Shown here: piece by piece, positions 6,201 to 32,193 of the stretch | Layout of the letters: each line of letters starts with the position of its first letter | How positions within the stretch are numbered: position 1 is the stretch's first letter | Source: a virus | Reading direction: 5' to 3' (one strand) | IMG/VR virus record: IMGVR_UViG_3300045125_000156 | Length of the DNA: 35,157 nucleotides | Translations under genes and position numbers: made by a program | The notes under the pieces: generated by a model | What the model saw: the letters and a program-made list of their open reading frames with translations, nothing else | Databases searched by the model: none | What the model was told of the DNA's origin: nothing

Positions 6201-7630
6201 GGCTTTCCGTCGATGCTCTTTGACTCGATGCGGACCCGTTTCCACATGGCTGGTTACATCCAGGCCGTTTCACACTCGGCGAGCGCCGCAGGCGGCGGCA
6301 GCATCTCGACCTCGGTGCAGATGACGTGCTGCCGGACACTGCCCGAGTTCATCAACGACGTACGCGCCGATGCTGAGCGTTTCCGCAGCCGAGTAACTGC
6401 GGCCCCTGCGGAAATTATCGACCAGATCCGCGAACGCATGCAGGATGAAGACAACGCCGAAGCGTTCTATCGCCGACTCTTTACGGCAACGGCCCGCGCG
6501 CCGGAAATGCCCCCACGGCCTTCCGTTGGACAGAAGCCATGGGCTACAGCCGAGGGCTTTTGACCGAAGACATCTATGTCCGAGGCGAATCGGTAGCGGT
6601 TACGACCGCCCGCGCACAAACCGTACAAAATGAGGAACAGAATGAAGTGGCGGCTACGACCGCGCCCGGAAATGCGCCAGATCCAACCAGTATCGGCGTA
6701 ACAGCCCTGACCGGTGCGGGGACGGCCATTGGCAGGACCGTCGGAGAAGTTGCAGCTTCTTTAATTTCTCCAACTTTGGCAAACGTGGGCGCCTCTGTCG
6801 GCTCCCGTGCAGGGTCGGCTCTCGGCCAAGAATTCGCAAGAATTAACCCCGAAGGCGTACAAAGAATTAACGCCGCAGCTTCAACGGCGCGCGGCGCAGT
6901 GGCCACGGCTTTAAACCCCGTGGCAACGGCCGCCGCCCTAAGGGATGCGGTTCGCGCCGTTACCACAAATGAGGCTGGGGCTGAAGGCGGGCCGGCTACA
7001 AATGAAGCCGGGGCTCCGGCGGGTCCGGCTACAAATACAACGGCACCTCAGCAAAGCACGTCTGGCAACTCCCCAGCCCAGCAGGCGAACCGCCAGCGGG
7101 TTGAGCACAACCTCGACCCCAACGTAGAACTTTCACCCCGTGAAAATATCTACCAGGACGCCTTTGACCGCTACGACATCGCCATGCAGCTGGCGTCACG
7201 GCCGGCGTGCACGTTGGAGCAGTACATTCGTTTCTGGCATGGCGGCGCTGAGGTAGGCGCTCTCGTAGACCAGCAGATCGTAACGGGGCCCCAGGACGCT
7301 TTTGCGTACATCGAGGTCAAACAGAACGAAGTGATCAAGAGCGTCGTTGGCGTTAACGGCTCAGCCGAATACCTACGGGGCATGGTCTCCCATAAAGTGG
7401 CGCTCTACTACGACCGCATCTTCAAATTGCGCCCGGGCCCCGGCACCGGTGCCGACCGCCTCACAGGTCCGACGGAGGCAGAGCGCGGGTATACCGATCC
7501 GCCGTCGGTACGGCCTTCAACGCAGCACTCTGGCGTCGCCGCTGATTATCCTCAAACGCGTGCCGACTGGGACTCGATCCTGATCACGTACCGTAACAAA
7601 GTACGAACGCTCTTGAGGCCGACCGTATGA
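3214..7630 (+). CDS. Very large baseplate hub-like/tail-associated protein with an internal Zn-peptidase-like (M15/LAS-type) domain; multiple frameshifts
   Basis: Consecutive + ORFs (3214..4221, 4227..4727, 4826..5220, 5404..6063, 6174..6563, 6539..7630) tile with no clear intergenic gaps. N-terminal CYVNGIEVPI...LLVDGEITGWSY and C-terminal KFNPYIVPGFP...GYIQAVSHS resemble hub proteins. The internal motif is H-IQGRAID...DHFDHIH. May be more than one gene. Confidence 0.55.
6965..7036 (+). repeat. 33-bp in-frame tandem repeat (TNEAGAEGGPA / TNEAGAPAGPA / TN)
   Basis: ACAAAT recurs at 6965, 6998 and 7031, with similar sequence between copies. Confidence 0.8.
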
Positions 7631-8325
7631 CTCCGGCAAAATCGTTAGACCTTGAGCTTTGGCGGGCGTGGAAACAGATGCCGACGCCTCAGAACCTGGA
7701 AGCGCTGATCAAACAGTTAAATCCGGTGCTGCAACGCGAGATGATGCGGTGGTCGGGCATCGTCCCAAAGTACGTGCTGGAGAACGAAGCAAAAAAGCTC
7801 GCTATCAAAGCGTGCGGCTCTTACAACCCCAACGCCGGAACCGCGTTGGCGACACACGTCACCAACCAGCTTCAAAAGTTGTCGCGCATCGCGTACCAGC
7901 GCCAGAGCTCAATGCTTGTGCCTGAGCAGCAGCGCTTGACGTTCAACCGCTACAACGCGGCCGTGCGGCACCTCGAAGATCTGAACGGCCGAAAACCTAC
8001 GATGGACGACGTTGCGGACTATCTGGCAATCAAGCCCAAAGCTCTGCAAAAAATCGTAGAGAACGTGAGGCCGAAAAGAGCTGATCGAATCTGGAGAAGG
8101 CCCTCAGTTTATTCAGCACGCTGAAAGTGACGTGCTCGATCTGGCCTACGGCGACATGACTCCGGTGCAAAAAAGATCTTCGAGATGCGCACCGGGTACA
8201 ACAACACGCCAATTGCCAAGAGCGCCAAGGAGATCATGAAGGCGCTCAACATCACGCAGAGCCAGCTCAGTTACCAGCTTTCGGCCATCAAGGCTTTGCT
8301 GGAGCGCGCACAGCGACTACGCTAG
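7627..8325 (+). CDS. Phage-encoded RNA polymerase sigma-70-family factor (regions 2-4); frameshifted near the 3' end
   Basis: Region 2-like LAIKACGSYNPNAGTALATHVTNQL; region 3-like LNGRKPTMDDVADYL; region 4 HTH in shifted frames (DMTPVQK..IFEMRTGY...SAKEIMKALNITQSQLSYQLSAIK); TAG at 8323-8325. Confidence 0.8.
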
Positions 8326-18988: not shown

Positions 18989-19560
18989 TCAAATATTCTC
19001 CTTCACCTCCCGTCGGGAACGGCGCTTAGGCTTTCCGCCTTCGAGCGCCGCCACCACCTCAATCTCACAGCGCCGCCGTAAGAGCTCCTTGTGGTCAATC
19101 GCCCCAGGCGAGACCGCGCGAGCATCAGGGCGTCAGCTGAATCGTCGTCATCACCAAGGTCGAGCTTGAACACCTGCTTCACGGCGTGAAGAACTTCCGC
19201 CTTGGAGGCTAGACCGTTGCCGGTTGCAAACCTCTTGAGACGTGTCGGCTCGACGACGCGAAGATCTACCCCCGCCGACTCCGGACACGGCCACTTTGAG
19301 CGCGCCTGAGGCTTCGCCCAGGTCGAACTCGCGGTGCGTGCTGCCGAGACTTGGCCCTTCAATGCACCCGCCAACTCACGACGCCCGTGGGGAATCGCGT
19401 ATGCGCGCTTGCCCATGAAAATAGCGTAGCCAGCCGCTCCCGGCCCCACGCAGCTTTCGACTTACACTAAGAGCGTTGAGAAACTCGACCTCAAGCCCGT
19501 TTTTCAAAATTGCCAGGCCTGGGCGATTAGAGACGGGTCCACCCCGACGTAGACACTCAT
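18989..19560 (-). CDS. ruvC: RuvC-like Holliday junction resolvase; frameshifted
   Basis: Starts MSVYVGVDPSL; continues VVEPTRLKRFATGNGLASKAEV and DDDSADALMLA; ends ...REVKENI* at 18989. Confidence 0.85.
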
Positions 19561-20492
19561 GCCCAGCATCATCATCCGAATCCGACAAAAAGGCTATATC
19601 CGGTCGGCCGGATATCAAGCCGTGAACTGGGCGGTGACGGTTCCCGTCTCAGACCCGCCGGGGTCTCCGCTCCTGAGGCACGCAGCCCCTGAGCTATGCG
19701 CCCATCTTCGTCGTGCGGAATTCGGGCGGTCCCGACGCGCTAGCCCGGATTGCCACGCTTAAAGATCTGGTGGCCATCCCTCAGGCGGAGCTCAAGTACT
19801 TCGACATTCTTGGTCCCGGTGGAAACCAAGTACTGGGGACGGCCCAAGCGGGCGATGTGCTGACCTTCCCCGAGACCTCTGGGCGCCTTTCCTACTGGCT
19901 TGAGGACACAGCGCCTTGCAACTCAAACCAGTTCACGGTGGCGCAGCGGCTTAACAAGGCTTCTGGGACGGGGCCTCAGATTCTTTCAAATAGCCGCCTT
20001 CAGCTGCCGGGATACACCTTTACGGATGGCGACCTAAACCGTTGGGTCCGATTGGCGGGCCTGCTGACGCCGGCTTACAACACCTTCGTTCAAATCCTGG
20101 CTATCTCCGGAAATACCGCAACCATAAACATTCCCACCCCAGTAAATGAGACCGCCGGGTCGTGGGAAATGCCGCTCCCTTGAGATTGTGACAAACGCCG
20201 GCGCCGGGCTGGAGCCCCGATTTTTCCGACGCGAGAAACAAACCTTCAGTGGTCACTTACGCGCGGCGCAGTTCTAATCGGCTCAGGCGCCTACGAGGGC
20301 GTCACGACACGATGGGCAGGCGCGCCGAGCCCGCTCGCCCGGTCGATTCGCTATACGGATTTGGCGCCGAGCAGTGACGCTGCCGAAGCTTTTTTCATCA
20401 GTGTCCGCAACGGCGTCGCCGTATTGCAGTCCACTGCAACAAAGAACGACACGGACTTCACGCCGCTTCTCACCAGCACGTACGGGCCGTAA
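19559..20492 (+). CDS. Hypothetical protein, probably virion; frameshifted
   Basis: MPSIIIRIRQKGY... joins ORF 19713..20183 and ends at TAA 20490-20492, just before the next ATG. Confidence 0.5.
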
Positions 20493-20886: not shown

Positions 20887-21943
20887 GTGTCATCCCCGTA
20901 GTGCGGCAAATCCGCCGCGATTTTCGATTGTCGGACAATTCTGTTCGATTCGAAGTCTCGAACGAGGTCATCGACCAGGGGACCTCCCGTTCCCGCACGT
21001 CTTCGTAATGACCATCGTTGATCCGGCGACGGCAAAAGAAGATGTACTGGCGCGCATCCGCAACGCCTGTAGACATTCGGCAAGCCGATCCTACAGCGCC
21101 CTTGTATGTGAAGGTCGCGTCAACAGATATCACTGAGATCAGTGGCGACACCTTCGCTCCAGATCGCCAACACAAACGATCTGACACAGCTCCCCCGTGA
21201 CCGGGTTACGGCCGTAGTGCAGGGCTCGTCGACTTATTTGTCGACGGCCGTGAGCCTTGATCTACGACAACTATGCAACTGCTGACGCAGCCGCAAAACA
21301 AGTTATATCCAGGCTCTCGGACCTGGTAACGGCCTGGCGAACCTTCTCAACGGCGTTCGCCACAAACCCCTACCAGGACTATAATCTCCCCCAGGCGGCC
21401 GCCAGTGTCGAAGCAGAGCGCACGGCCGTTTACGTAGAAAAACGCACAGCGCGAGAGGCGGCCGAAACGGCTTACGATGAAGCCGTGGCCGCCAAAGAAG
21501 CGCTGTGAGCGCGACTGCGCCGCCGACAAAGTCATTTACGACTTTCTGGTTGCGGACGTTACGTTCCTTGAGCAGGCCAAAGCCGTGGTGCAAGCTCAGG
21601 CCTAACGACGTGGTACCCCGCCGGGACCTTCACGGTCGCTCCGGCGATTACGCAGCCGGCGGGGCCGTTTACGGTGACGCTGCCTACGTCGCGCACGAGA
21701 GACTACGTACTAAAAACCGGGGCTTTTGCCGCTGACCTGACGTCTTACGAAAACCTGCTCGTAAAAAACGTCAAGACCAGGCCGTCTATGCGGAGCGAGT
21801 TCGAACCTGCACTGCAACGTGTGCGCAGTTGGGCGCCGCAGTGTTGACCGCGCAACAAACGCTCGACGCGGCTCAGGCCGCCGAGCGCGCGGCGCTGCGA
21901 ACGTAGTGGCGGTCTGTCCTACTTTGATCCAAACACGGTGTGA
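20883..21943 (+). CDS. Hypothetical protein with coiled-coil C-terminus; frameshifted
   Basis: MSVIPVVRQIRRDFRL...; ORF 21257..21508 is Ala/Glu-rich and helical; stop at 21941-21943. Confidence 0.5.
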
Positions 21944-21945
21944 AC

Positions 21946-22961
21946 ATGATCGACTTCTACAACGACCCAGGCCACGCGACGCTCCGCCACCTTCTACAGC
22001 GCTCTCCGGGAGCAGCTGAGATGCTCAAGACCGCCGAGCTCGAAGACTTCAACCGTGACCTGCCGGACTCGGCTTTCGCCTGGCAGTCAAAGCGCCTGTA
22101 CCCGGTGCATACGCCTGAGCACGCCGCTGTTTCGTACCTCTACGCCAAGCACGCCTCCGCCCGCACTCCGCGCGAGGTTCTCACCTTCATCAAGGAGGCT
22201 CTCGACATCTACGGCGTCGAGGAAGAAGCCTTGGCTGAAGTGCAGATCAAGGAGGCTGCGCTTGACGAAGATGAGTGCATTTTCCCGCAGTCCCGTACGT
22301 ACCCCGTGCGCGACGCCGGAGAGGTCAAAACCGCCGAAGAGAAACTGCTCGCGCAGGCCGCCAAACTTCGACCCGAAACGCGGGCTGACGCTTTCACCCG
22401 GCTCACCAAAGCCGCCAGCTTTCACGGCGTGAACCTTCGCGAAGACTCGTACAAGTACGCCGGCCTGACGTACACCGATCGTCCGCGCCTTGTAGATTCG
22501 CTACGCGCCCGTGCCGCTGCGACAAAGGAAGCCGAGCTCAGCGCAAAGTACGCGGCCCTGGCGACGAGCGTTGCTCACGACCGCGCCAGCCTGCGAAGCC
22601 GCGCCGCCCGTGTGAAGCTGGCAGAAGCCATCGGAACGCTCGACGAGCGCGCCGGGCTTCTCAAGTACTACGACCGGGACCTTGAAGACCCGATCCGCAC
22701 GGTGTTCAACACCACGAAGGTAGCCGCCGCTGACGACATCGATCTCGGCGGGGGTACGGTGGTGTCGGCGTCGTCGCTCGCGGCGCTGCCGCCGACCTTT
22801 TCAGTGACCTCTTTGGCCCGGACATCGTGAAGGAGATCGCGCCCGCAGGTCAGGTCGATCCCGCCGCGCTGCAACAGGTCGTCGTGACCTTCCCCGCTGA
22901 CATGAAGCAGCAACTCGCCCAGGCGCTCAAGAGCTCGGGCGTGCCGATGGCCCGGATGTGA
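21946..22961 (+). CDS. Putative head/morphogenesis protein with internal repeat; one frameshift
   Basis: LPDSAFAWQSKRLYPVHT and a second related copy LDEDECIFPQSRTYPVRD; strongly GC3-biased codons; lies upstream of the terminase. Confidence 0.55.
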
Positions 22962-22965
22962 TTTT

Positions 22966-23648
22966 ATGTCGGCGATTGCCGTACTCAAAGACCCACAAGT
23001 TCTCCCGTCCGTAGCCTGGGCTGCGACCAAAAAGCTGTTCGGGCCTTCGGTCGCCGCGTGGGAGTTTGAGACCATTCGTCTTGAACTCCAGCGACGGGGC
23101 GTGGAGGTTGATGAAAGTCTGGCCGCCAAGATCTTCGGGGCCATGACCATCGAGATCTCCAACGACTGGACCTTCGACCATGACGTGCTCTTTGCCTTCG
23201 CGCTTTCCTGCTGCGGCGTGCCGAGCAACGGTGACGGCGTCCACCACCCCACGCCGGAACAGCTCTGTTGGGCAATCCACGACCTCCACGCCATCACGGG
23301 TAAGCCCATTACGGACGACGAAGGGTTTGACCCGGACGCCATCGACCCTGCGATTGGCGTATTGCTGCACGATGATGGCTACGTCGTAACGCCCGATGAG
23401 CTCTCCTTCGCGCAGGACGCGCTCGACAAGATCAATCGCTACGGAGCCCTGAACGACATCAAAAAGAAGTGCAGGACGCCTGGAAGGTTGTGTCGACGCT
23501 GCCCGTGGACAGCCTCAAAAAGCACTTGAGCGAACTTGATGACGAGCCTGCCGAGATCCAGATTCGACGCCTGGGCGACTGCCGGTTATATGTAGCAGAG
23601 CGCCAACTACGTCGAGCCAAACAGCATGCCCTCCTTAACGAGCAATGA
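22966..23648 (+). CDS. Hypothetical protein directly upstream of the terminase; frameshifted
   Basis: ORF 22966..23529 continues in a shifted frame to ...KQHALLNEQ*, overlapping the terminase start. Confidence 0.6.
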
Positions 23649-26388
23649 CGGTGTCGAGCTAAAGCGCACGCGCTCAGAATTAGCCCGCGCCCTTCTTCGC
23701 ATCGACGGCAAACCCGTCAATCTTGATGACTACCCGATGTTCCTCGCCATCTACGACGGCGGGTACAAGCGGACCCTTTTGAAGACCTCCCGGCAGGTGG
23801 GGAAGTCGACGACCCTCTCGAACTTCTCCGTCGCCGAGTCAATCGCCGAGCCGCACTTCAAGACCTTCTTCATTTCACCCTCGCAAGAGCAGACGCACAA
23901 GTTCTCAACGGAACGCGTCGGCAAGACGATCATGTACTCGCCCCTGGTGAAGAAGCACTTCATCGGGGATTCCAACAGCAACCGCGTCATGGTCCGCTCG
24001 TTCAAGCGCGGATCCACGATCTACTTCAGCTACGCCGAGGACGACGCCGACCGGTGCCGTGGCGTTACTGCTGATCGTTTGTGTTTCGCTGCTTCAACGC
24101 AGGTGCTCACGCGTAAAGGTTGGGTCGAAGTCTCAGATCTGTCGTACGCGGATGAAATCGCCGATGTTAACGACGCCGGCCAGTTGGAATGGAATCGCCC
24201 CACAGCCCTGATCTTCAGAAACCACACAGGAGAAATGGTCCGCTTCAAACATCGCGGCATCGACCTGCGGGTTACAGCGGATCATGTAATGCGGGCGAAT
24301 TTCCGGCATAAAGGAGGTGCGGCCTACAAGACCCCAGATCGTTACGAATTTGTTCCAGCGTCTGATCTCGCGCGTACGTCGGGCATGGGCTTCAAGTTCA
24401 CGTGTGCCGCCGAATGGCCCAACAAGGCTATTCCTGAGTTCATCACCCTCCCTGGGGTTGATGGAACCTACGGTCGAAATCGAGACGAGTTGAGAGTTCC
24501 GCAGCAGGCGTTCGCCGAACTCATGGGTTGGTATATTTCAGAAGGGCACCTTCAGTGGAAATACACACCTCAGGGTAAGCGATATCCCCGCATGATCATT
24601 ACCCAGAACGAAGGCCGCTATGCGACAGAGATTCAGAATTGTTTATTGCGATGCGGGCTGTCGTTCTCCGTTAACCGCAGGCATACCGTATCGGCCGTAA
24701 ACCGGGTTAAGTCGATTCGATGCACATTCACCGTCAACGCCCCGCAGGTTGGAGCTTTCGCAGCCCCGCTTGGACACGCTCGTGATAAATACATCCCGGC
24801 TTGTTTCTTCGAGCACACGGACCTACTGCGGGAGTTGCTTCGGTCTTTATACCTGGGCGATGCGTGTTACCACTCTGGGGACCCGTGGGACCGGGGCGTT
24901 CTTAGAACGCGCTCACGGCGGCTTGCTGACGACGTGACCCGGGCGTGGCTGGCGCTAGGGCGTCCAGCTGCCACGCACACCTTGATGGTACCTCCACGCG
25001 CCGGAGCCCCGCCCGAACCGATGTACGACGTCGCTGCCCACAAGCAGAATTACTACGTGTTCTGGCGAAGCGAGTTCGTCACCAAGAAGCGTGTGACGGC
25101 AGAACCCGTAGTCGATGAGCCGGTCTACTGCTTCACCGTCAAGAACCATCGGCCCGTCGTGCGCGGTGGTTTTGGCCAAAAGCCCCTGATCACCTCACAG
25201 TGCCTGGACGAGGTGCAAGACATCAACCTCGAAGCCGTGATCCCGGTGGTCAAAGAGACCATCGCGAACTCGGAGTACGCGTACGAGATGTACTGCGGAA
25301 CGCCGAAGACGATGGAGAACGGCATTGAGCTCATGTGGAAGGCGTCCACCAAGAGCGAGTGGGCGATGAAGTGCGAGGGGTGCGGCCGCTACTCGGTGAT
25401 CGTGAGCGAGAAGCAACTCGGCAAGCACGGCCCCATCTGCACCAAGTGCGGCAAGGCGTTGAACCCTCGATTCGGGGTGTGGATCGACACCAACCGTGAT
25501 CCCGGCGTTCGCACCAAGGGATTTCACATCTCACGGGCGATCATGCCCAAATCGGTGCCGATCTGCTGGTCGGAAGGTCCGCTGCGCGACAAGGCCCAGG
25601 AAAAGTGGGACGAAGTTCTCGACAAGCTGGAAGGCCCCGGCGCCTACCCGCTGTCGATGTTCCGCAATGAGGTCCTGGGCGTCAGTGACTCCGAAGGCGT
25701 TCGCCTACTGACAAAAGAAGACTTGGAGGTCATGTGCGACGGCCCGGACATTTCGCCCGTACCGACGCATCAGAACATGGCCGACGTGATGAAGATCGCG
25801 GCAGGCTTCGATTGGTCCGGCGGCGGAACTGAGGTGAAGTCCCGCACGGTCCTGACCGTCCAGGGGCAGCTTACCAGTGGGCGGGTCAGGCTTTTGTATT
25901 TTAAGATCTTCCCCGGCACCTCACCCCTGGAAGAGCTGAACGAGATCACACAAGTTGTAAAAAACTACGACGGAAAATTCGCCATGTTCATGGGCGGCGA
26001 CGCCGGCGAAGGCAACATGAACATGGACTCGTTGCGGAACCGCTTTCAGAAGCCGCAACGAATCTTGAAGATCCGATATGTAGGAACGCAGAACACCTAC
26101 GTGAAATGGAATAGCGTCGGCGGCTTCTACACCCTGCACCGCACCCCCGCGATCGATTCGATCATGACGAACTTGAAGATGGGGAAGTATCAGTTCCCCG
26201 CCAACAAGAAGGTCATGGAGGTCGCGTTTAACGACATCTTGAACGAGCACGTCGAAGTGACCACGCAGGGTCGGAAGCGCTGGGATCACGCGTCCAATAA
26301 GCCTGATGACTTCCTGCACGCCCTTGTGTTTGGCCGATTGGCTCTTCAGGTGAGCACGGGCGAACTGAACTTGGGGAGCGCGCTTTAG
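23626..26388 (+). CDS. terL: Terminase large subunit (GpA-like ATPase plus nuclease) containing an intein
   Basis: Walker A KTSRQVGKST; Walker B restored on splicing (ADRL|CLDEVQD); GTPKT motif; CEGC..CTKC zinc ribbon; nuclease AGFDWSG and PDDFLHA. 920 aa, or 547 aa once the intein is removed. Confidence 0.92.
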   Translation: MPSLTSNDGVELKRTRSELARALLRIDGKPVNLDDYPMFLAIYDGGYKRTLLKTSRQVGKSTTLSNFSVAESIAEPHFKTFFISPSQEQTHKFSTERVGKTIMYSPLVKKHFIGDSNSNRVMVRSFKRGSTIYFSYAEDDADRCRGVTADRLCFAASTQVLTRKGWVEVSDLSYADEIADVNDAGQLEWNRPTALIFRNHTGEMVRFKHRGIDLRVTADHVMRANFRHKGGAAYKTPDRYEFVPASDLARTSGMGFKFTCAAEWPNKAIPEFITLPGVDGTYGRNRDELRVPQQAFAELMGWYISEGHLQWKYTPQGKRYPRMIITQNEGRYATEIQNCLLRCGLSFSVNRRHTVSAVNRVKSIRCTFTVNAPQVGAFAAPLGHARDKYIPACFFEHTDLLRELLRSLYLGDACYHSGDPWDRGVLRTRSRRLADDVTRAWLALGRPAATHTLMVPPRAGAPPEPMYDVAAHKQNYYVFWRSEFVTKKRVTAEPVVDEPVYCFTVKNHRPVVRGGFGQKPLITSQCLDEVQDINLEAVIPVVKETIANSEYAYEMYCGTPKTMENGIELMWKASTKSEWAMKCEGCGRYSVIVSEKQLGKHGPICTKCGKALNPRFGVWIDTNRDPGVRTKGFHISRAIMPKSVPICWSEGPLRDKAQEKWDEVLDKLEGPGAYPLSMFRNEVLGVSDSEGVRLLTKEDLEVMCDGPDISPVPTHQNMADVMKIAAGFDWSGGGTEVKSRTVLTVQGQLTSGRVRLLYFKIFPGTSPLEELNEITQVVKNYDGKFAMFMGGDAGEGNMNMDSLRNRFQKPQRILKIRYVGTQNTYVKWNSVGGFYTLHRTPAIDSIMTNLKMGKYQFPANKKVMEVAFNDILNEHVEVTTQGRKRWDHASNKPDDFLHALVFGRLALQVSTGELNLGSAL
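24082..25200 (+). mobile_element. Intein (373 aa) with LAGLIDADG homing endonuclease
   Basis: Block A CFAASTQVLTRKGW; block B LRVTADH; blocks C/E ELMGWYISEG and LLRSLYLGDA; block H TRSRRLADDV; block F VYCFTVKNH; ends ITSQ followed by +1 Cys. Confidence 0.92.
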
Positions 26389-26390
26389 CC

Positions 26391-26420
26391 AAAAAACACG
26401 CAGCGTTTTACCGCTGCGTG
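26391..26420 (-). terminator. Intrinsic terminator ending the - strand arm
   Basis: - strand CACGCAGCG-GTAAAA-CGCTGCGTG-TTTTTT: a 9-bp perfect stem plus U-tract between convergent stop codons. Confidence 0.8.
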
Positions 26421-26428
26421 CCCGGGCT

Positions 26429-26786
26429 TCACGCCTTACCTGGGATGGCGGTTCTCAGGGACCGAAGCCAGTCCCTGAGGTACGCGGCGTACTCTGGCCG
26501 CGCACAGATGCGGGACGTTCTCACATCCCGCGCGAAGACTGCCGCAAGCGGCTTGAGCGCCTCTTGCGGCAGAAGGGCGGCCACGGCCGCCCGGTATTCC
26601 TCTGGGTGGGTGTCCACCCAGAGAAGGTCGGGGTCCGAACAGTTGAACCCCTCCTCACCCGGCTGGGGCACGCCCAGCATGGTGAGGACGTTCGCCAAGC
26701 GGGTCCATTCCCGCTTGGCGGTGGAATCCCCGACATCCTTTCGGAAATCGAGGAGCCACCGGCGAGACGCCGTCAGGGCTGGTCAT
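26429..26786 (-). CDS. Cassette gene A, hypothetical protein (frameshift near the start)
   Basis: ATG 5 nt after GGTATAAG; joins the frame ...RWLLDFRKDVGDSTAKREWTRLANVLTMLG...AIPGKA*. Confidence 0.65.
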
Positions 26787-26791
26787 ACTGT

Positions 26792-26886
26792 CTTATACCC
26801 GCGCAGCCCCCACACTTTTGACCAAAAGAAACCGCCCCTTTGGACGCGCCGAACGGCGCGGGGCGGTGCCTCCAGGACGGAGGGCT
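26792..26886 (-). repeat. Structured terminator-promoter repeat, copy 1
   Basis: AGCCCTCCGTCCTGGAGGCACCGCCCCGCGCCGTTCGGCGCGTCCAAAGGGGCGGTTTCTTTTGGTCAAAA-N16-GGTATAAG. Confidence 0.92.
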
Positions 26887-27349
26887 TCAGACGTTTGCTG
26901 CCCGCTCGGCTTGCTCGGCGAGGCTCAGCAGCTGCTCCCGCACATACGCGAGGTCTCTGTACTCCCCGCCCCATGACGGCCCAGCGTCCCACGGCGGGGC
27001 GCGTCCCCATGTGGCAGCAGTCGAAGCCGACGGTGACGTCCCCGTCCCCGTCCCCGTCGCCTTCGACCTCGGCGTACGTGCAACCGCCGTGGACATCAAT
27101 AACCCAGAGCAGCCGATTCTCGCACGGGGGGACAGGCGCCCCGTCTTCGCCCGTGCAGGCCGCCCGGGCCCACGGGTGGGCCCGGGGCGCGGTGATGTAC
27201 CCGCACCATTGCCCGAGGTAGTTCCGCCGGGCGCGCACCAGGAAGCCCCGGTAGACGGCCTCCACCAGGGAGACCTCCGGGCCATCGGCCCGGTCCAGGG
27301 CGTCGACGGTGTTGTTGTTGTTCGTATCCCCAGAAACATAGTTGTCCAT
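26887..27349 (-). CDS. Cassette gene B, small phage protein with DVHGGxTY / GFDCxH motifs; one frameshift
   Basis: WCGYI..PRAHPW...IDVHGGCTY...VGFDCCH, then in a shifted frame EYRDLAYVREQLLSLAEQ; a pattern recurrent in uncharacterised phage proteins. Confidence 0.75.
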
Positions 27350-27354
27350 ACTGA

Positions 27355-27448
27355 CTTATACCCGCCGCCCCTACCGTTTTTTGACCAAAAAAACCACCCC
27401 GTAGGACGCGCCGAACGGCGCAGGGTGGTGCCTCCAGGACGGAGGACT
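27355..27448 (-). repeat. Structured terminator-promoter repeat, copy 2 (diverged, compensatory changes)
   Basis: AGTCCTCCGTCCTGGAGGCACCACCCTGCGCCGTTCGGCGCGTCCTACGGGGTGGTTTTTTTGGTCAAAA-N16-GGTATAAG. Confidence 0.9.
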
Positions 27449-27841
27449 AAGCAGACCAATCTTCTGTGATCTTCTGCCAGCCTTGAGGGCTTCTTTTCTG
27501 ATCTCAAACCCGTCGAGCCACCCCCGTAATATCCGTTGGAGGAATTACGGAAGATGACCTGGCACTTCCCGCGTCTCGTTACGAGATCATAGCCATACGC
27601 GAGATCGTACAGTTGTCTGGATCTATTGTCATCGACGTCCGGGAGGTCCAGGTCTTCGACGTCGATGACCTCCTGGCCCAGAAGGGCCTCGACGTTGATG
27701 ATGTCGGCAAACCAGCTGGTGGAGCAGCAGCCGCCCCTCACCGAGTATACGAGCGTTTCCGTCTTGGTTTCGAAAGCGATCTGGCTTTCGTCCTCCGGAA
27801 ACGCTGAGGCCAACAACACACCGACCAATCAGAGAGTTCAT
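27447..27841 (-). CDS. Cassette gene C, small acidic phage protein with CC and SNGYYGG motifs (DUF7448-like); frameshifted
   Basis: MNSLIGRCVVGLSVS joins GGCCSTSWFADI...YGYDLVTRRG...FRNSSNGYYGG; SD-like AAGGGTG upstream; likely TAG at 27447-27449. Family name is from recall. Confidence 0.7.
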
Positions 27842-27885
27842 AGTTCACCCTTTTCTTAACCACCATGAAACGGCTCATGGCCTTT

Positions 27886-27981
27886 CTTATACCCAGTCTC
27901 TCGTAATTTTTTTGACCAAAAGAAAACCGCCCCTTTGGACGCGCCGAACGGCGCGGGGCGGTGCCTCCAGGACGGAGGGCT
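27886..27981 (-). repeat. Structured terminator-promoter repeat, copy 3
   Basis: Core identical to copy 1 except one extra base in a homopolymer; unrelated 16-nt spacer, then GGTATAAG. Confidence 0.92.
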
Positions 27982-28239
27982 TAGTATGGGGAGTAACACG
28001 CCGAGCAGTCGGAGAAATGTATCTCCGACCACTCGACGTCGACGAGCTCAGGGTTATCGCGGAAGAACCGCGCCCCGATCTCCGCATCGGTCTGGTTTCG
28101 GCCAGACCTGTTCCTGGGTTTCTCGCCCGGCGCGAGGCGCCGGGCCCAGACCCTCCCGATAGGGGCGCCGCACGAGCGGCACTCCCTTCTCGCAGAGGAT
28201 TTTGAAACCGATGGGCCCAGAGGCAGAAGGGGTTGTCAT
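27981..28239 (-). CDS. Cassette gene D, small hypothetical protein; frameshifted
   Basis: ATG 5 nt after GGTATAAG (MTTPSASGPIGF...); the 3' frame DAEIGARFFRDNPELVDVEWSEIHFSDCSACYSPY* stops at the repeat edge. Confidence 0.6.
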
Positions 28240-28244
28240 ACTTC

Positions 28245-28273
28245 CTTATACCCCCCGGACCCCCTTTTTTTCA
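28245..28273 (-). promoter_or_regulatory. Fourth copy of the promoter motif, without the hairpins
   Basis: TGAAAA-N15-GGTATAAG-GAAGT-ATG, overlapping the exonuclease stop codon. Confidence 0.7.
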
Positions 28274-28831
28274 CGCCGCGAAAAACGCCCCGGCCACCGT
28301 CTTATACAAATACATCCCCCTCCAGACGTCTGGCATGGCGCGGTGCTCTGGCTGCTTTGGGCCGCCGAGAGGCGTCATAAGCTGCGTGCAGGCTGGCGCT
28401 GGCCAATCCGTGCTTGATCGCTACAAGGGCCGCCAGCCCTTGTAGGTCAAACGTCCGCCGCCCCCACTTTGCCGGCAGGTCAAAGTACGCCATCTCCGCC
28501 GCGATGAAATCGCGGTCAAGCTCACGTTCTGCGAGCAGAGCGTGCACCCCGCCAAGAGGTCTGCCAGCTTCTTCCAGAGCTCCTGGGCCTTTCGGCTACC
28601 CGCTTTCGGCGCGCCGTCCCAGTCGGGATGGCCAGGGAAATAGCCGTTGACTTCCAGAGCTTTTGCGGACCATGGCCCCTGCGTAAGATCAACGACCTGT
28701 TGAAAGTCCAGCGTGTCTAGGGTCGTAAGGCCCGCCTGCGTCGCCTCTGCCACCACGGCCGCCACTTCAATCACGCGGTTGACCCCGGGCTTCAAACCCG
28801 TGGTTTCCACGTCAACGAACGCGAGTTTCAT
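28271..28831 (-). CDS. DEDDh (DnaQ-like) 3'-5' exonuclease; frameshifted
   Basis: ExoI FVDVETTG; ExoII QNV..DRDF; ExoIII EHRAMPDV in the last frame; TGA at 28271-28273. Confidence 0.88.
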
Positions 28832-31800
28832 TTGGGTTCTTCGTCCTTTCTGGAAGATCAAACGCGTCCGGATCGCGCAGATCGTCTAGTTGTTCTTCGT
28901 CCGTGTAGCCGTCCAGCTGTGCTTCCGGAACAGGTGGCGGTAGGCCCTGTACATACTTCGCAGAGTCCATGACTTCGCCGTAGCTGGGTCCGAGCTCTAC
29001 GTCCCATCGATAAGGCACCGGCATCCACGGGAAGGCCTCAGCAACACGGTTTGTGCCGTACTGCGTGAAGATGTCCCGCACCTGATGCGCGTACTTCTTG
29101 GGGACCTGAAAACCAATCGAGTCGTGGACCGTAAGCAACAGCCGGCCCCGCAAGTCATTTTCGATTACCGGCGCAAGCCAACAAAGCACGCTCAGCACGA
29201 TGTCCGAGTTCGTGCCTTGCACCTTGAAGTTGATAGCTCGTCGCTCGGCCTGCGCCCGTAATTCGTTTGGCGCTCCGGCCCCGATAAGAAAGCGACGACG
29301 GCGGCCATTGAAGGCCTCGACCATGCCAAAGGTACGGAGCTCCCACTTCGTGCGGTCCATGAAGGTTCGGATCGTCGGAAACTTCGTGAAGAGAAGCTCC
29401 TGGATCTTCTTGGCGAACTCGTGAGAAATGCCAGCGATCTCCGCGATCTTCTTGATGCCGGCGCCGTAAAGCATGCCAAAGACGAGACGCTTGATGTTGT
29501 CGCGCAAGGCCTTTAAGCGCTTCCCGTAAGCCTTGTCGGGCAAAAGACCGTCCTTGCCCTTGAGGAAGTCGTCATAAGACCAATCGTGCTCGTCATCGAT
29601 CCCCGCGTTCACAAGCGCGATGCGTCGCGCCTCGCCGCTAAGGCCCGCCGCTACCTGCTTGGGGTTGAGGCACTCGGAGCCGAAGAAGCAGTGCGCGTCC
29701 AGGCCGTCGCGCAACGCGGCAATCAGGGCGCTGTCTTTTGAATAAGCCGCGTAAATCGAAACCTCGGCGCCTTTGGCGTCAGCGTTGCCGAAGCAAAAGG
29801 TCTCGTCATCCGGCACAAACAATTTTTTGCAATTGACGCCTTCAAACACCGGGCGGCCCTGATCGTTCAACACCAGGGCGCCTTTCAAGTCGCGCAGCGC
29901 GCCGATCAGACCCTTGGGAATGTTCTGGGCGTTGAAGCGGGCGTCGCCTACCTGAACCGCCGAAGACAAGCGGCCAGTCGACGTTGAAGTCAGCCCGTAC
30001 CCCGCGTGAAGCTTGCCGTCCCCGAAGTAAGTGGCCAGCGCCTCGATATTCGCGAAGAAAGTGTTCTTGCCCTTGTCCGCCTTCTTATGTGCCAGAAGCA
30101 AGTTGGCCAACGGGCACTTGTAGCGCGCGACGAGGCTTTTCATCACCCCGTCGCTGACCTGAATCGCGCCCTTGGCCGTATACGCCTGGGCTTTGTAGCT
30201 GATGCGTTTACCGTCGAAGTTAACGAGCCCCGGGTATTCTTCAGCGAGCTTGGATGCCGCCTCCGGGTCCGGGTGGATATCACCCGTCGCCGAAGAACAG
30301 CTGACCAAGGCGGCGCGTCGAGCCAAGCTGAGACCGTCACCACCCGCCAGTTCAAAGATCTGTTGCCGGGTATGCTCGACTGTCTGCCCCAGCGACTCCG
30401 CGCCCCACGTGCAGTACGCGAGGTCGACTTTCATGCCGTTATACTCAATCTTTGCCAACTCCCGCTGACGCGGCAAATAGTCATTCTGCAAAAGGCTGCG
30501 CAGCGGGCTTGAAATGGTGCAAAGCCGTTGCACTGCAAAAGGCTCTTTGCGCCCCAGCGAGCGCTCCTTCGAGCTTCTCGCGAGACGCAGAACAGCCTCA
30601 AGTCCTCTTCAGCCATGCGCCCCGCTTGGATGATCGCAATCCGCCGCGTGGCATCTGCGTCAACGCAGGCGTAGAACATGAGCTCGTTGAGCGGAATGCT
30701 CTCGAAGCCCCTGTCTTTTTCTTCTGAGACGGCGCCTTCTCCGCTTTCGCCCGAAACTCCCCGCTCTTCTTTGCGTTCCAATACCAGCTGAATCTGGTCT
30801 TTGATCTCAGCCCACTTCGGGTCTTTAACCGCTGTCTCCAGGGTCTTGACCTGAAACCGCTGCGTCTTCAAGACCTTCTTCTTCAGCAACGTATCGAGCG
30901 CCGCCGCAGCGGCCGGAGGCAGCCGGATAGCCTTCCCCTCAGTCGAGGGCTCGGCCACGTTAATCGCGCTCGTTGGCTTGCTCCAGCATGTCCTGAAGCC
31001 GGTCTTCGTAGCCCGCGAGTTCCGGCAAGAACTGCTTTTGTGAGCATCTTCAGCGAATAGAACTTCTTCTTGTCCTCTTCAAGAACATGCTCCGCCAGCA
31101 ATGCGTCCCACGTAACGTTACCCACGTCGCCCTGGGGCCAGCCCAGGCGCCAGAAGACCTTGTAGTCATACTTGCCGTTAAACCAGATAATCCGCTTGCC
31201 GCTCGCCAGAAGGCGCTTGATTTCCTCGTACGCCTCACGCCGGGTCATACATGGTGTTTTGCGGGTGCCACAGCGCCACAGATGCGGCTTTCCCCGTGGA
31301 CCAGGAAAACGAGACCGATAGGAGCTTGGTGCCCTCCCAGTTGGGGTGCAGGGTGTTCGTCTCGGTGTCAAACGAGATTACCCAGTCGAGCGGCGGGGCA
31401 TTCTTCTCCAGAGTAATTGATGACAAAGTCGACAAGGGTCCGGACTTCCTGCAACGTCTTTGGATAGATGAAGTTTCGCTCAATCTCTTCACGCGTCTTC
31501 ACGCGGACAAGAACGAAGTTGCGAGCCGTGCGGCCCGCTCGATATCTGCCAGCAACGTATTGAATTTGCCGTCCTGCGTGCCGTGAGCCTTGAGCGACCG
31601 CGTGAAGACCACAGTCACTTTGACCCCGCCTACGTCGACGTCCTCGAAGATGCGGTTGAGCGCCCTCGTCTTCGCTTCGCACCGAGACTCCGAGCGCGAC
31701 CAGCGACGCCACGCCGCAGGCAATGACGACGATTCGATTCTGACGGCCCGCCGCCAGCCGACGCTGTGACGCGAGATGAATGTTCGTCGGAGGTTGGCAA

Positions 31801-32193
31801 CGCAGGCGGTGATGACTTTCTTGTTGGGGTTTTCGACGGCGCACTTGCGGCGTAGGTGTAGAGAACCTGCAGCGCCCCAAATTCACTCCGTGAAAGTACG
31901 CGGTTGATGGCCGACTTGAAAACGCGGCCGGCGGTATCCTCGAAGGTTTCGTGGCGGGTCTTGAGAGGCCCGACGTCCTTGCCCCGATGAGCATGAGATG
32001 CGGCGGGGGCGACGGCGCGTCGCCCACCACTGACGATGTCCGCCCCTTCTGGGCCGGAGTTGTCGGGATGAAAATGTGTGTCCTGAATGCGGGCATGCGT
32101 TGCAGCCATTGCCAGCTTTGGCCTGCCACTCAGGGCGGGCGCAAGCTGACAGCTGAACGCGCCCGGCGGTTCAGTCAGCGTCACTGTGGGCAT
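28812..32193 (-). CDS. polA: Family A DNA polymerase with N-terminal family-4 UDG-like domain and 3'-5' exonuclease; frameshifted in the 5' half
   Basis: GGAGG RBS. UDG-like CNACP, VVGDAP, FEDTAG and KC...TAC; exonuclease SFDTET, FNGKYD and YACVDAD; polymerase TGRLSS, NAQNIP, ADAKGAEV, RDNIKRLVFGMLYG, AINFKVQG and TVHDS. Confidence 0.9.

Follow-up and report, generated by a model that had tools for sequence, protein, structure and literature searches.

The interval between the exonuclease gene (exo) and terL of an uncultured phage, sampled in IMG/VR record IMGVR_UViG_3300045125_000156 (35,157 nucleotides of one strand, all of it referred to here as the window), holds an array of four small units at positions 26391–28273, all on the minus strand and separated by three copies of a structured repeat (Table 1). 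Pfam and PHROG profiles place terL, convergent with the array, on one side and a DEDDh exonuclease gene and a family-A polymerase gene (polA), both on the minus strand, on the other. A first-pass annotation made from the letters alone had described four small minus-strand genes in units of 360–560 bp at the junction of the structural and replication arms, and both the position and the spacing hold up, with promoter-to-promoter distances of 359, 531 and 563 bp and a last unit of about 363 bp; the four units are present, but none of the four genes (0/4) is an intact open reading frame (ORF) in the window. The phage itself would be roughly 150–170 kb and, carrying a family-A polymerase, does not look T4-like.

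A repeat search of the window recovered a 64-nt direct repeat in three copies (26824–26887, 27386–27449 and 27919–27982) with 86–97% identity. Its 19-mer core CCTCCGTCCTGGAGGCACC occurs three times on the minus strand against 0.03 expected, the promoter-like word GGGTATAAGNNAG four times, always on the minus strand (at 26788, 27351, 27882 and 28241; 0.14 expected), and GGTATAAG alone four times (0.25 expected). Each repeat (R) begins at or 1–2 nt past a stop codon (TAA 27983–27981, TAG 27449–27447 and TGA 26889–26887) and, as the first-pass annotation had seen, leads into the promoter-like motif of the next unit at all three copies; the conserved unit is, however, about 105 nt (104–107 nt, from stop codon to ATG) rather than the ~70 bp given there. 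Read 5' to 3' on the minus strand, an interior unit starts with the stop codon, (A)AG(C/T), hairpin 1 (CCTCC-gtcct-GGAGG) and a C, continues with the nested stem of hairpin 2 (GCGCC-gttc-GGCGC enclosed by ACCGCCCC and gtccaaaGGGGCGGT) and a T-run, and ends with (TT)GGTCA and an A-run, 15–18 variable bases, the core GGGTATAAG, 5 bases and the ATG. The exonuclease stop codon is followed by the promoter half only, without the hairpin part. At the far end lies a terminal terminator, T2 (fold −27 kcal/mol, z = −3.7), which stands back to back with the terL stop codon (26386–26388) and is kept in the closest relative, G001.

Table 1. Features of the exo–terL array and its borders in the window, listed in the direction of the array.
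Feature	Coordinates	Strand	Description
DEDDh 3'-5' exonuclease gene	28274–28831	−	Upstream array border; RNase_T and phrog_192 matches; frame-broken, two overlapping ORFs
First promoter half	28241–28273	−	exo stop TGA, A-run, G-rich spacer, GGGTATAAGGAAGT directly before ATG 28239; homologous to the exo-proximal promoter of G001
Gene A	27981–28239	−	Small CxxC...CxxC zinc-ribbon-like ORFan; ATG 28239, leaderless-looking; main frame +1 relative to ATG, probable indel
Repeat copy 3	27917–27984	−	Hairpin 1 27978–27964, nested terminator hairpin 2 27962–27926, T-run; covariance model 95.9 bits
Unit B promoter	27882–27916	−	TGGTCA and A-run, 15-nt variable spacer, core GGGTATAAG (GGTATAAG at 27886–27893)
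Gene B	27447–27841	−	DUF7448 (Pfam E=2.8e-12) / phrog_2650 (PHROG E=8.8e-18); frame-broken
Repeat copy 2	27384–27451	−	Hairpin 1 27445–27431, hairpin 2 27429–27393; outer stem with compensatory G-C to A-U change
Unit C promoter	27351–27383	−	TCA and A-run, spacer CGGTAGGGGCGGCG, then GGGTATAAGTCAGT
Gene C	26887–27349	−	phrog_2164 family; ATG 27349, leaderless-looking; G001 homologue E=1.3e-21
Repeat copy 1	26822–26889	−	Hairpin 1 26883–26869, hairpin 2 26867–26831, T-run; covariance model 95.1 bits
Unit D promoter	26788–26821	−	TGGTCA and A-run, spacer, GGGTATAAGACAGT
Gene D	26429–26786	−	Commonest cargo: window, G001, G002, L094, L097
Terminal terminator T2	26391–26428	−	R-like 5' flank AAGCCC..GGCAC (from ~26428), hairpin CACGCAGCGgtaaaaCGCTGCGTG 26420–26397, T-run 26396–26391
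terL	23626–26388	+	Convergent downstream array border; LAGLIDADG-type intein ~24088–25200

In its predicted design the repeat is an intrinsic terminator, with a G+C-rich hairpin and a U-run directly after the stop codon. Each window copy folds at −30 to −33 kcal/mol (z about −2 to −2.5) with a centroid structure that includes the terminator stem, and all three are flagged by a simple terminator scan as well. A 19-mer search of IMG/VR found the full repeat in three further contigs, G001 (130 kb), G002 (90 kb) and G004 (46 kb), and hairpin 1 alone in G003, and a terminator-core pattern retrieved ten metagenome contigs, freshwater being the source of several. When 20 distinct copies, drawn from 14 loci, are compared, every cell of the two terminator helices, 2 and 3, is paired (100%), and pairing drops to 38–54% in partner-slide controls. 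One helix position has changed from G-C to A-U in five copies and to G-U in one, and a G-C to C-G change is seen in one copy, a second, cut-off copy with the change in contig L100 being uncounted; since the copies vary little, the covariation support is statistically modest. Hairpin 1 keeps its stem with a variable loop (GTCCT, ATTCT, ATCCG, ACTCT, TGACCA) and can be swapped for other stems (GCCC...GGGC in contigs L091–L095 and, in G001, a stem of 9 bp that surrounds the stop codon); that it protects RNA 3' ends or acts as a processing site would be a guess. A tRNA-like reading of the repeat was set aside, as the inner loop is 4 nt and Rfam gave no match.

Within the putative promoter only the −10-like TATAAG is conserved, TTGGTC lying 22 nt upstream of it vs the 16–18 nt of sigma-70 promoters. 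Because just 5 nt separate TATAAG from the ATG and no Shine-Dalgarno motif is present, genes A, C and D are predicted to be leaderless; leaders are present in several cargo genes of relatives and in gene B, whose likely start, ATG 27841, has a short leader with an AGGG Shine-Dalgarno-like motif. We considered GGTATAAGnnAGTATG as a genome-wide promoter class and rejected it, as it is restricted to the array in G001, G002 and G004. An ORF elsewhere in the window (7627–8124, plus strand) has a sub-threshold Sigma70_r3 match (E 6e-5, 23.4 bits vs a cut-off of 25.3) and its product could be a phage sigma-like factor; with a match below threshold, it cannot be tied to the GGGTATAAG promoters.

The cassette genes are broken in frame in characteristic ways. 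Analysis of G+C content at third codon positions (GC3) together with three-frame translation shows the frame of gene A, which has no Pfam or PHROG match, switching to +1 shortly past its promoter-adjacent ATG, as does that of gene D, where a 1-nt insertion follows codon 8 and the 3' end is joined to the tail of a cassette still present in G001. Gene C breaks near 27000–27010, at two 1-nt homopolymer deficits (G4 and C4 vs G5 and C5 in G001), and gene B requires at least two frame changes. In G001 the cassette genes are intact, the differences being single bases in short homopolymer runs. The same is seen beyond the array: genes that form one ORF in G001 are split over two to five frames of the window, with cases on both strands (for example 28833–32193, which is polA, 19559–20489 and 21940–22958), polA, one 1121-aa ORF in G001, is in at least five pieces, and the intact 185-aa G001 exonuclease maps by tblastn to window 28831–28274, across two ORFs. 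As the breaks run window-wide on both strands, include core genes and, where examined, sit at homopolymer sites, they are most likely assembly indel errors rather than biology, and in the phage itself the cassette genes are best regarded as functional. Programmed frameshifts or pseudogenes were rejected because the breaks affect both strands and core genes, in runs that are one base longer in G001. ORF-based readings of the window in general need care, given the probably many assembly indels. The broken frames of all four window genes, and the many metagenome contigs that end at the repeat, might instead be taken to mean that the cargo diversity arises from mis-assembly at the repeat or that the array is decaying junk, but this is the least probable of the explanations that we weighed: the window, G001, G002 and G004 are long contigs, four in all and from separate samples, and each has an array that is coherent yet unlike the others; the interior junctions include unique fused sequence that mis-joining at a repeat could not produce; and the breaks reach core genes including polA on both strands, with the relatives' cassette genes intact.

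Comparison across relatives shows how variable this locus is. The order polA–exo–gap–terL, with terL convergent, is kept in nine IMG/VR contigs sampled by exonuclease alignment, that is, independently of the repeat, and the exo–terL stop-to-stop gap ranges from ~47 bp (L014), ~65 bp (L018) and ~100 bp (L017), all with no cassette, through ~470 bp (L016, one cassette with a simple terminator), ~630 bp (G004, one cassette) and ~970 bp (L022, with its own unrelated 45-nt repeat in three copies) to ~1450 bp in G002 and ~1670 bp in G001, each with several cassettes, and ~1885 bp in the window. The number of cassettes thus varies from 0 to 4 and is three to four in G001, G002, metagenome contig L097 and the window. 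With P for promoter, R for repeat and a dot for an ATGA-coupled gene pair, the window array reads P-A-R, P-B-R, P-C-R, P-D-T2; G001 has P-E-R', P-C-R, P-D-R, P-(no ORF)-T2; G002 has P-F-R, [exo 3' fragment]-P-G.D-R; L096 has ...P-G.M-R-P...; L097 has P-J.K-R, P-D-R, [exo 3' fragment]-P-L-R; G004 and L098 have P-H-R; L016 has P-E-t; and L011 has P-I-t', P-I2.... All-against-all BLASTP sorts the cargo into about 20 unrelated families, only D (five contigs) and C, E, G and Q (two each) recurring, and Pfam matches are few, the exceptions being DUF7448, phrog_2164, phrog_8344 and an AAA_33 kinase-like protein. Four more gene D homologues were found in metagenomes, and sampling arrays through gene D rather than through the repeat gained only G001 and G002. 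The first-pass annotation had proposed comparing cargo between terL and the DEDDh gene, an unchanging set of genes being what would refute its reading; content and order differ between relatives rather than showing the same four genes in a fixed order, about 20 families are flanked by the repeat, and junction variants exist among contigs, an outcome in favour of that reading.

Several units at this locus are unusual in content. The fourth unit of G001 (L005 7200–7354, minus strand) has an R-promoter, CTGGTATAAG, followed by ~150 nt and T2, with no ATG-started ORF of at least 40 codons listed, and may be a small RNA. In L099 (1488–1703) and L100 (2209–1990, minus strand), R and a GGTATAAG promoter precede a conserved stretch of ~220–260 nt (84% identical) and then an ORF; this stretch, which has no Rfam match, is a candidate structured leader or non-coding RNA cargo. 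Contigs L007 (9050–9142) and L098 (800–850), 96% identical, differ by a 47-nt indel just past the promoter, such that gene H of L098 appears as a leaderless in-frame fusion (MDIHTGVRW...) and the promoter-adjacent ATG of L007 starts a 9-codon mini-ORF with an ATGA overlap with gene H. In the more distant L022 (polA ~39% identical), the three ~45-nt repeats in the exo–terL gap (7540–7985; CTTGCTCCGGTACCTACCCGGCGTCTCCGTAGCGGAGACAT) each form a hairpin ending at an ATG, which suggests that the locus may be a hotspot for building lineage-specific repeat arrays. The window terL, for its part, contains an intein-like insertion of ~1.1 kb (24088–25200) with a LAGLIDADG_3 match that is missing from the terL of G001 (otherwise 91–97% identical) and from that of L100.

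Pairs of related arrays indicate where cassettes may have been exchanged. The window and G001, whose backbones are 82–88% identical, share unbroken homology from gene D through R and gene C to the gene C promoter; homology then ends at window 27429 (L005 8424 in G001), the first base of hairpin 2 and hence the border between the two hairpins, and restarts at the G of the ATG at 28237–28239. The replaced block (window 27430–28236 vs L005 8425–8785) comprises A-R-P-B-hairpin 1 in the window and, in G001, the unrelated gene E with a different hairpin 1. A mosaic is seen in L097, whose backbone is close to that of G002 (exo 97.6%, terL 98.3% identical) but which has no other G002 cargo in common: its R-P-D-R block is 87.6% identical to G001 and 81% to G002, and the spacer CGGTAGGGGCGGCG with GGGTATAAG, found before gene C in the window and G001, stands there before gene D, pointing to a crossover between the −10-like box and the ATG. 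L096, a 1-kb contig without a backbone gene, is a third variant and has both the exo-fragment junction and gene G in common with G002, at ~91% identity.

The repeat is also more alike between genomes than its surroundings. Copies in the window vs G002 and G004 are 95–100% identical, against 64–71% for terL and polA DNA. A covariance model of R gave 24 matches with E ≤1.3e-07, all oriented like the gene before them and placed right behind its stop codon, and found R in the G001, G002 and G004 lineages; with this model R went undetected in L011, sister to G001, and in two sister contigs of G004, L014 and L016. On the polA tree, carriers are interleaved with non-carriers. Vertical descent with selection alone would fit this patchiness poorly, and spread with cassettes between co-occurring relatives appears to fit it better. 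Such a patchy distribution, near-identity across divergent lineages, and the separation of hairpins 1 and 2 in other contexts (G003 and the L091–L095 group) could also mark a small non-autonomous mobile element, akin to a miniature inverted-repeat transposable element (MITE) or a repetitive extragenic palindrome (REP), that carries terminator and promoter signals and spreads itself between phages. We consider this very unlikely: the repeat shows neither terminal inverted repeats nor target-site duplications, always has one orientation, always directly follows a stop codon, nearly always sits at one locus and has no transposase in sight nearby. The L091–L095 contigs pair an identical hairpin 2 with another hairpin 1 (GCCC-loop-GGGC), their T-run abuts the promoter TTTTGGTATAAG, and they carry further repeated blocks (TTTACCGGGTAAA ... 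CTGGTATAAGGATGTGTCCCC) within rows of small genes.

Searches beyond these relatives returned little. The array had no blastn match among 50,697 phage records, and neither the window array nor any of 7 related loci gave a meaningful Rfam match. The one repeat match in bacterial genome contigs, in an Amycolatopsis coding region, lacks a matching 3' half and T-run and was taken as chance, providing no host clue; a match in IMG/VR contig L090, inside a G+C-rich ORF, was likewise attributed to chance.

The first-pass annotation had likened the layout to integron arrays and proposed a phage gene-capture or shuffling system. Taken literally, such a platform would use the repeat as an attC-like site at which a specific recombinase excises and inserts cassettes, and there are formal likenesses: tandem single-gene cassettes, each followed directly after its stop codon by an imperfect nested palindrome with a conserved bulge, and high conservation of the repeat sequence. 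An integron-like system is nevertheless not supported, and we regard it as highly improbable. Integrons have IntI beside the array, and neither a tyrosine (PF00589) nor a serine (PF00239) recombinase was found in G001 (76% complete), G002 or G004, in searches with positive controls (14/14 genomes for PF00589), nor by Pfam and PHROG profiles in the window, where the first-pass annotation had rightly reported no integrase. Integron cassettes are promoterless and served by a common Pc promoter, whereas each unit here has its own GGGTATAAG with a terminator before it, and the fixed crossover point of integrons contrasts with junctions that vary here (GGCC with A-run, GGTCA with A-run, with or without exo and terL fragments). 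With the recombinase search negative and the junctions in part illegitimate, a dedicated capture machine as first proposed is left unsupported. It is also unlikely, if less so, that the two-hairpin repeat is the site of a phage-encoded structure-specific recombination or nicking activity, or the joint of cassette mini-circles passing between co-infecting phages; either, if true, would turn the locus into a platform that captures genes without an integrase, in a large phage where none was found.

Some junctions retain traces of how the composite repeat may have formed. In G002 the interior junction consists of R, GGCCGTCAAT, which is the exact sequence that follows the last R and holds the terL stop codon, and then ~130 nt copied from the exo 3' end, from which 49 internal nt are missing, followed by the first promoter with six opening codons. 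The L097 junction runs from R into ~20 nt of exo 3' end, a TGA stop and an A-run, and by manual count this fragment, of the window/G001 type, is identical to the window exo end at ~26/27 nt, against a 19-nt partial match (16/19) to the exo end of L097 itself. Both junctions unambiguously join an array end to an array start. R is the terminator nearest to terL in L100, and there the sequence reads TTTTGG-TCA, the TCA being the terL stop, and this matches the interior TTTTGGTCA and A-run of the window (TTTTGG-TCA-AAAAAA); the exo stop is followed by the same A-run and a G-rich spacer of the same length, 21–22 nt to TATAAG. Given these remnants of the terL and exo stops, the interior unit most plausibly represents a fusion of the last terminator of the array, up to and including the terL stop, with its first promoter, beginning at the exo stop. 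Growth of the array would then begin with an illegitimate crossover that links the array end in one phage with the array start in another, after which the duplicated R and P sequences would allow ordinary homologous exchange. As the duplicated block extends a few codons into the first gene, this would also account for unrelated proteins that begin MDNH, MGNH, MDIH, MDTH or MDNY.

Taken together, these observations are best read as modular shuffling of the kind associated with the PeSL (promoter-early stem-loop) elements of T4-type phages, occurring in a new phage lineage, rather than as a new class of system, and we assign a probability of roughly 0.68 to the view that R is a composite of terminator and promoter similar to a PeSL, which insulates the ORFan units and serves as an anchor of homology at a single hyperplastic locus. 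The locus between exo and the convergent terL would be filled with autonomous one-gene, sometimes two-gene, transcription units, and the repeat would do two jobs. It would end one transcript and start the next, insulating each ORFan, and, because ~65–100 nt of it hardly differ, whether within one phage or between related phages that co-infect, it could serve as a homology patch through which ordinary phage or host recombination deletes, duplicates, replaces and imports cassettes, as has been proposed for the T4-type elements.

PeSLs are conserved composite terminator/promoter motifs of ~100 bp that run from an upstream stop codon to a downstream start codon, concentrate in hyperplastic regions beside ORFans, and flank cassettes that are deleted, inserted or replaced without a dedicated recombinase; they number ~50 copies per genome in several hyperplastic regions, contain a sigma-70-type early promoter and give excised mini-circles from neighbouring motifs (Arbiol et al. 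2010, PMC2839356; Comeau et al. 2014, PMC4122927). The likeness is extensive: the 104–107-nt unit has two predicted hairpins, a T-run and GGGTATAAG between stop and start; the setting is an exo–terL gap of ~47 bp to ~1.9 kb whose cargo mostly lacks Pfam matches; replacements end within the motif, at the border of hairpins 1 and 2 and at the ATG (window vs G001), and L097 is a mosaic; and no dedicated recombinase was found in G001, G002 or G004. As regards mini-circles, the junctions seen here are no more than indirect ones, of the end-to-start kind. There are also differences. The motif sequences are unrelated, the host genomes of PeSLs are T4-type whereas this phage has a family-A polymerase and is not T4-like in look, a −35 plus −10 sigma-70 promoter is replaced by a −10-like TATAAG without a −35 box, Shine-Dalgarno genes by mostly predicted leaderless ones, a stem-loop placed variably within the promoter by a fixed two-hairpin module upstream of it, and ~50 sites by nearly one locus. 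The first-pass annotation had held that the repeat resembles neither PeSL nor attC and ranked the array as its best candidate for an undescribed system; the sequences are indeed unrelated to PeSLs, but anatomy and inferred role are PeSL-like (PMC2839356, PMC4122927), and the claim of an undescribed system does not stand.

A number of points weigh against this reading. Function is deduced from sequence throughout, which applies to the activity of terminators and promoters, to the leaderless starts, to the driving role of homologous recombination and to the end-to-start origin of the repeat. No −35 box was found at sigma-70 spacing in the promoter, and a consensus scan did not call the sites. 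Repeat copies outside the window were fished with exact-match patterns, which under-samples diverged copies and inflates the apparent conservation, and short metagenome contigs, the L097-type mosaics included, may be chimeric at a 65–100-nt repeat. The motif is nearly confined to one locus, which holds 4/7 of the GGTATAAG sites of G001, all 7 being on one strand. Several rearrangements, such as the exo-fragment junctions, are microhomology or illegitimate joins rather than repeat–repeat exchange: the last, apparently non-coding cassette of G001 is missing from the window, lost through a join across 4 nt of microhomology (TAAG) in which gene D gained 8 codons (RTAIPGKA), and the L007/L098 indel is an event without repeat use. 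The proposal in the first-pass annotation that recombination between repeats moves promoter-gene-terminator units is partly supported: breakpoints inside the repeat and promoter and the ~20 cargo families agree with it, and these junctions do not.

These illegitimate joins fit another account, in which the array grew by moron accretion only, terminators and promoters are alike through functional selection, cassettes turn over illegitimately and the repeats are bystanders. In lambdoid phages, morons are single extra genes with their own promoter and terminator inserted between core genes (Hendrix et al. 2000, discussed in PMC2839356). The layout is the same here, and some joins are illegitimate, as proposed for morons; the exo 3' fragments inside the G002 and L097 arrays, the TAAG loss and the L007/L098 indel all agree with it, the covariation would be selection on the fold, and G001, which has 4 repeat copies and one diverged copy, has a similar terminator elsewhere, at ~112.5 kb. 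Morons, however, have no shared flanks and are not arrayed, whereas the cassettes here are flanked by repeats of 86–100% identity with breakpoints inside them. Two independent limits of homology lie precisely in the repeat and at the ATG, spacers and genes are re-assorted in L097, the unpaired loop GTTC and bulge GTCCAAA are near-invariant across genomes that are ~65–70% identical, beyond what a terminator needs, and the distribution on the polA tree is patchy. We therefore see moron accretion alone as a minority possibility, albeit the foremost of the alternatives. The diverged copy at ~112.5 kb (L009 3510–3578) is a hairpin 2 with T-run, 85% identical (60 bits), that ends an unrelated gene far from the array, indicating that the terminator type is not exclusive to it; behind it comes TGTTATGGT, a differing promoter of leaderless type, with an ATG after a further 6 nt.

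A further parallel is offered by the internal-protein (IP) loci of T4, in which conserved elements of promoter plus stem-loop bracket the small, unrelated genes that are exchanged (Repoila et al. 1994, cited in PMC2839356). Both are confined, highly plastic loci of exchanged, unrelated small genes. The T4 IPs have a short conserved N-terminus in common, and unrelated cargo proteins here begin MDNH, MGNH or MDIH. The first 4–6 shared codons are, in contrast, explained here by a duplicated promoter block that reaches codon 6, with no sign of a targeting signal.

So far, modular shuffling through PeSLs is on record for T4-like myoviruses only, and the authors who described it stated in 2010 that evidence of such shuffling in other viruses was lacking (PMC2839356). 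If the reading favoured here is correct, the same logic would have arisen independently, from unrelated sequence, in a clade of uncultured freshwater and soil phages that is not T4-like, supporting the idea that portable terminator-promoter linkers may be a general route by which large phages trial accessory genes with their core operons undisturbed. The junctions at this locus further suggest how composite repeats may be born, by fusion of an array end to an array start, and the exo-to-terL interval would offer a compact marker, addressable by polymerase chain reaction, of accessory-gene turnover in natural phage populations.

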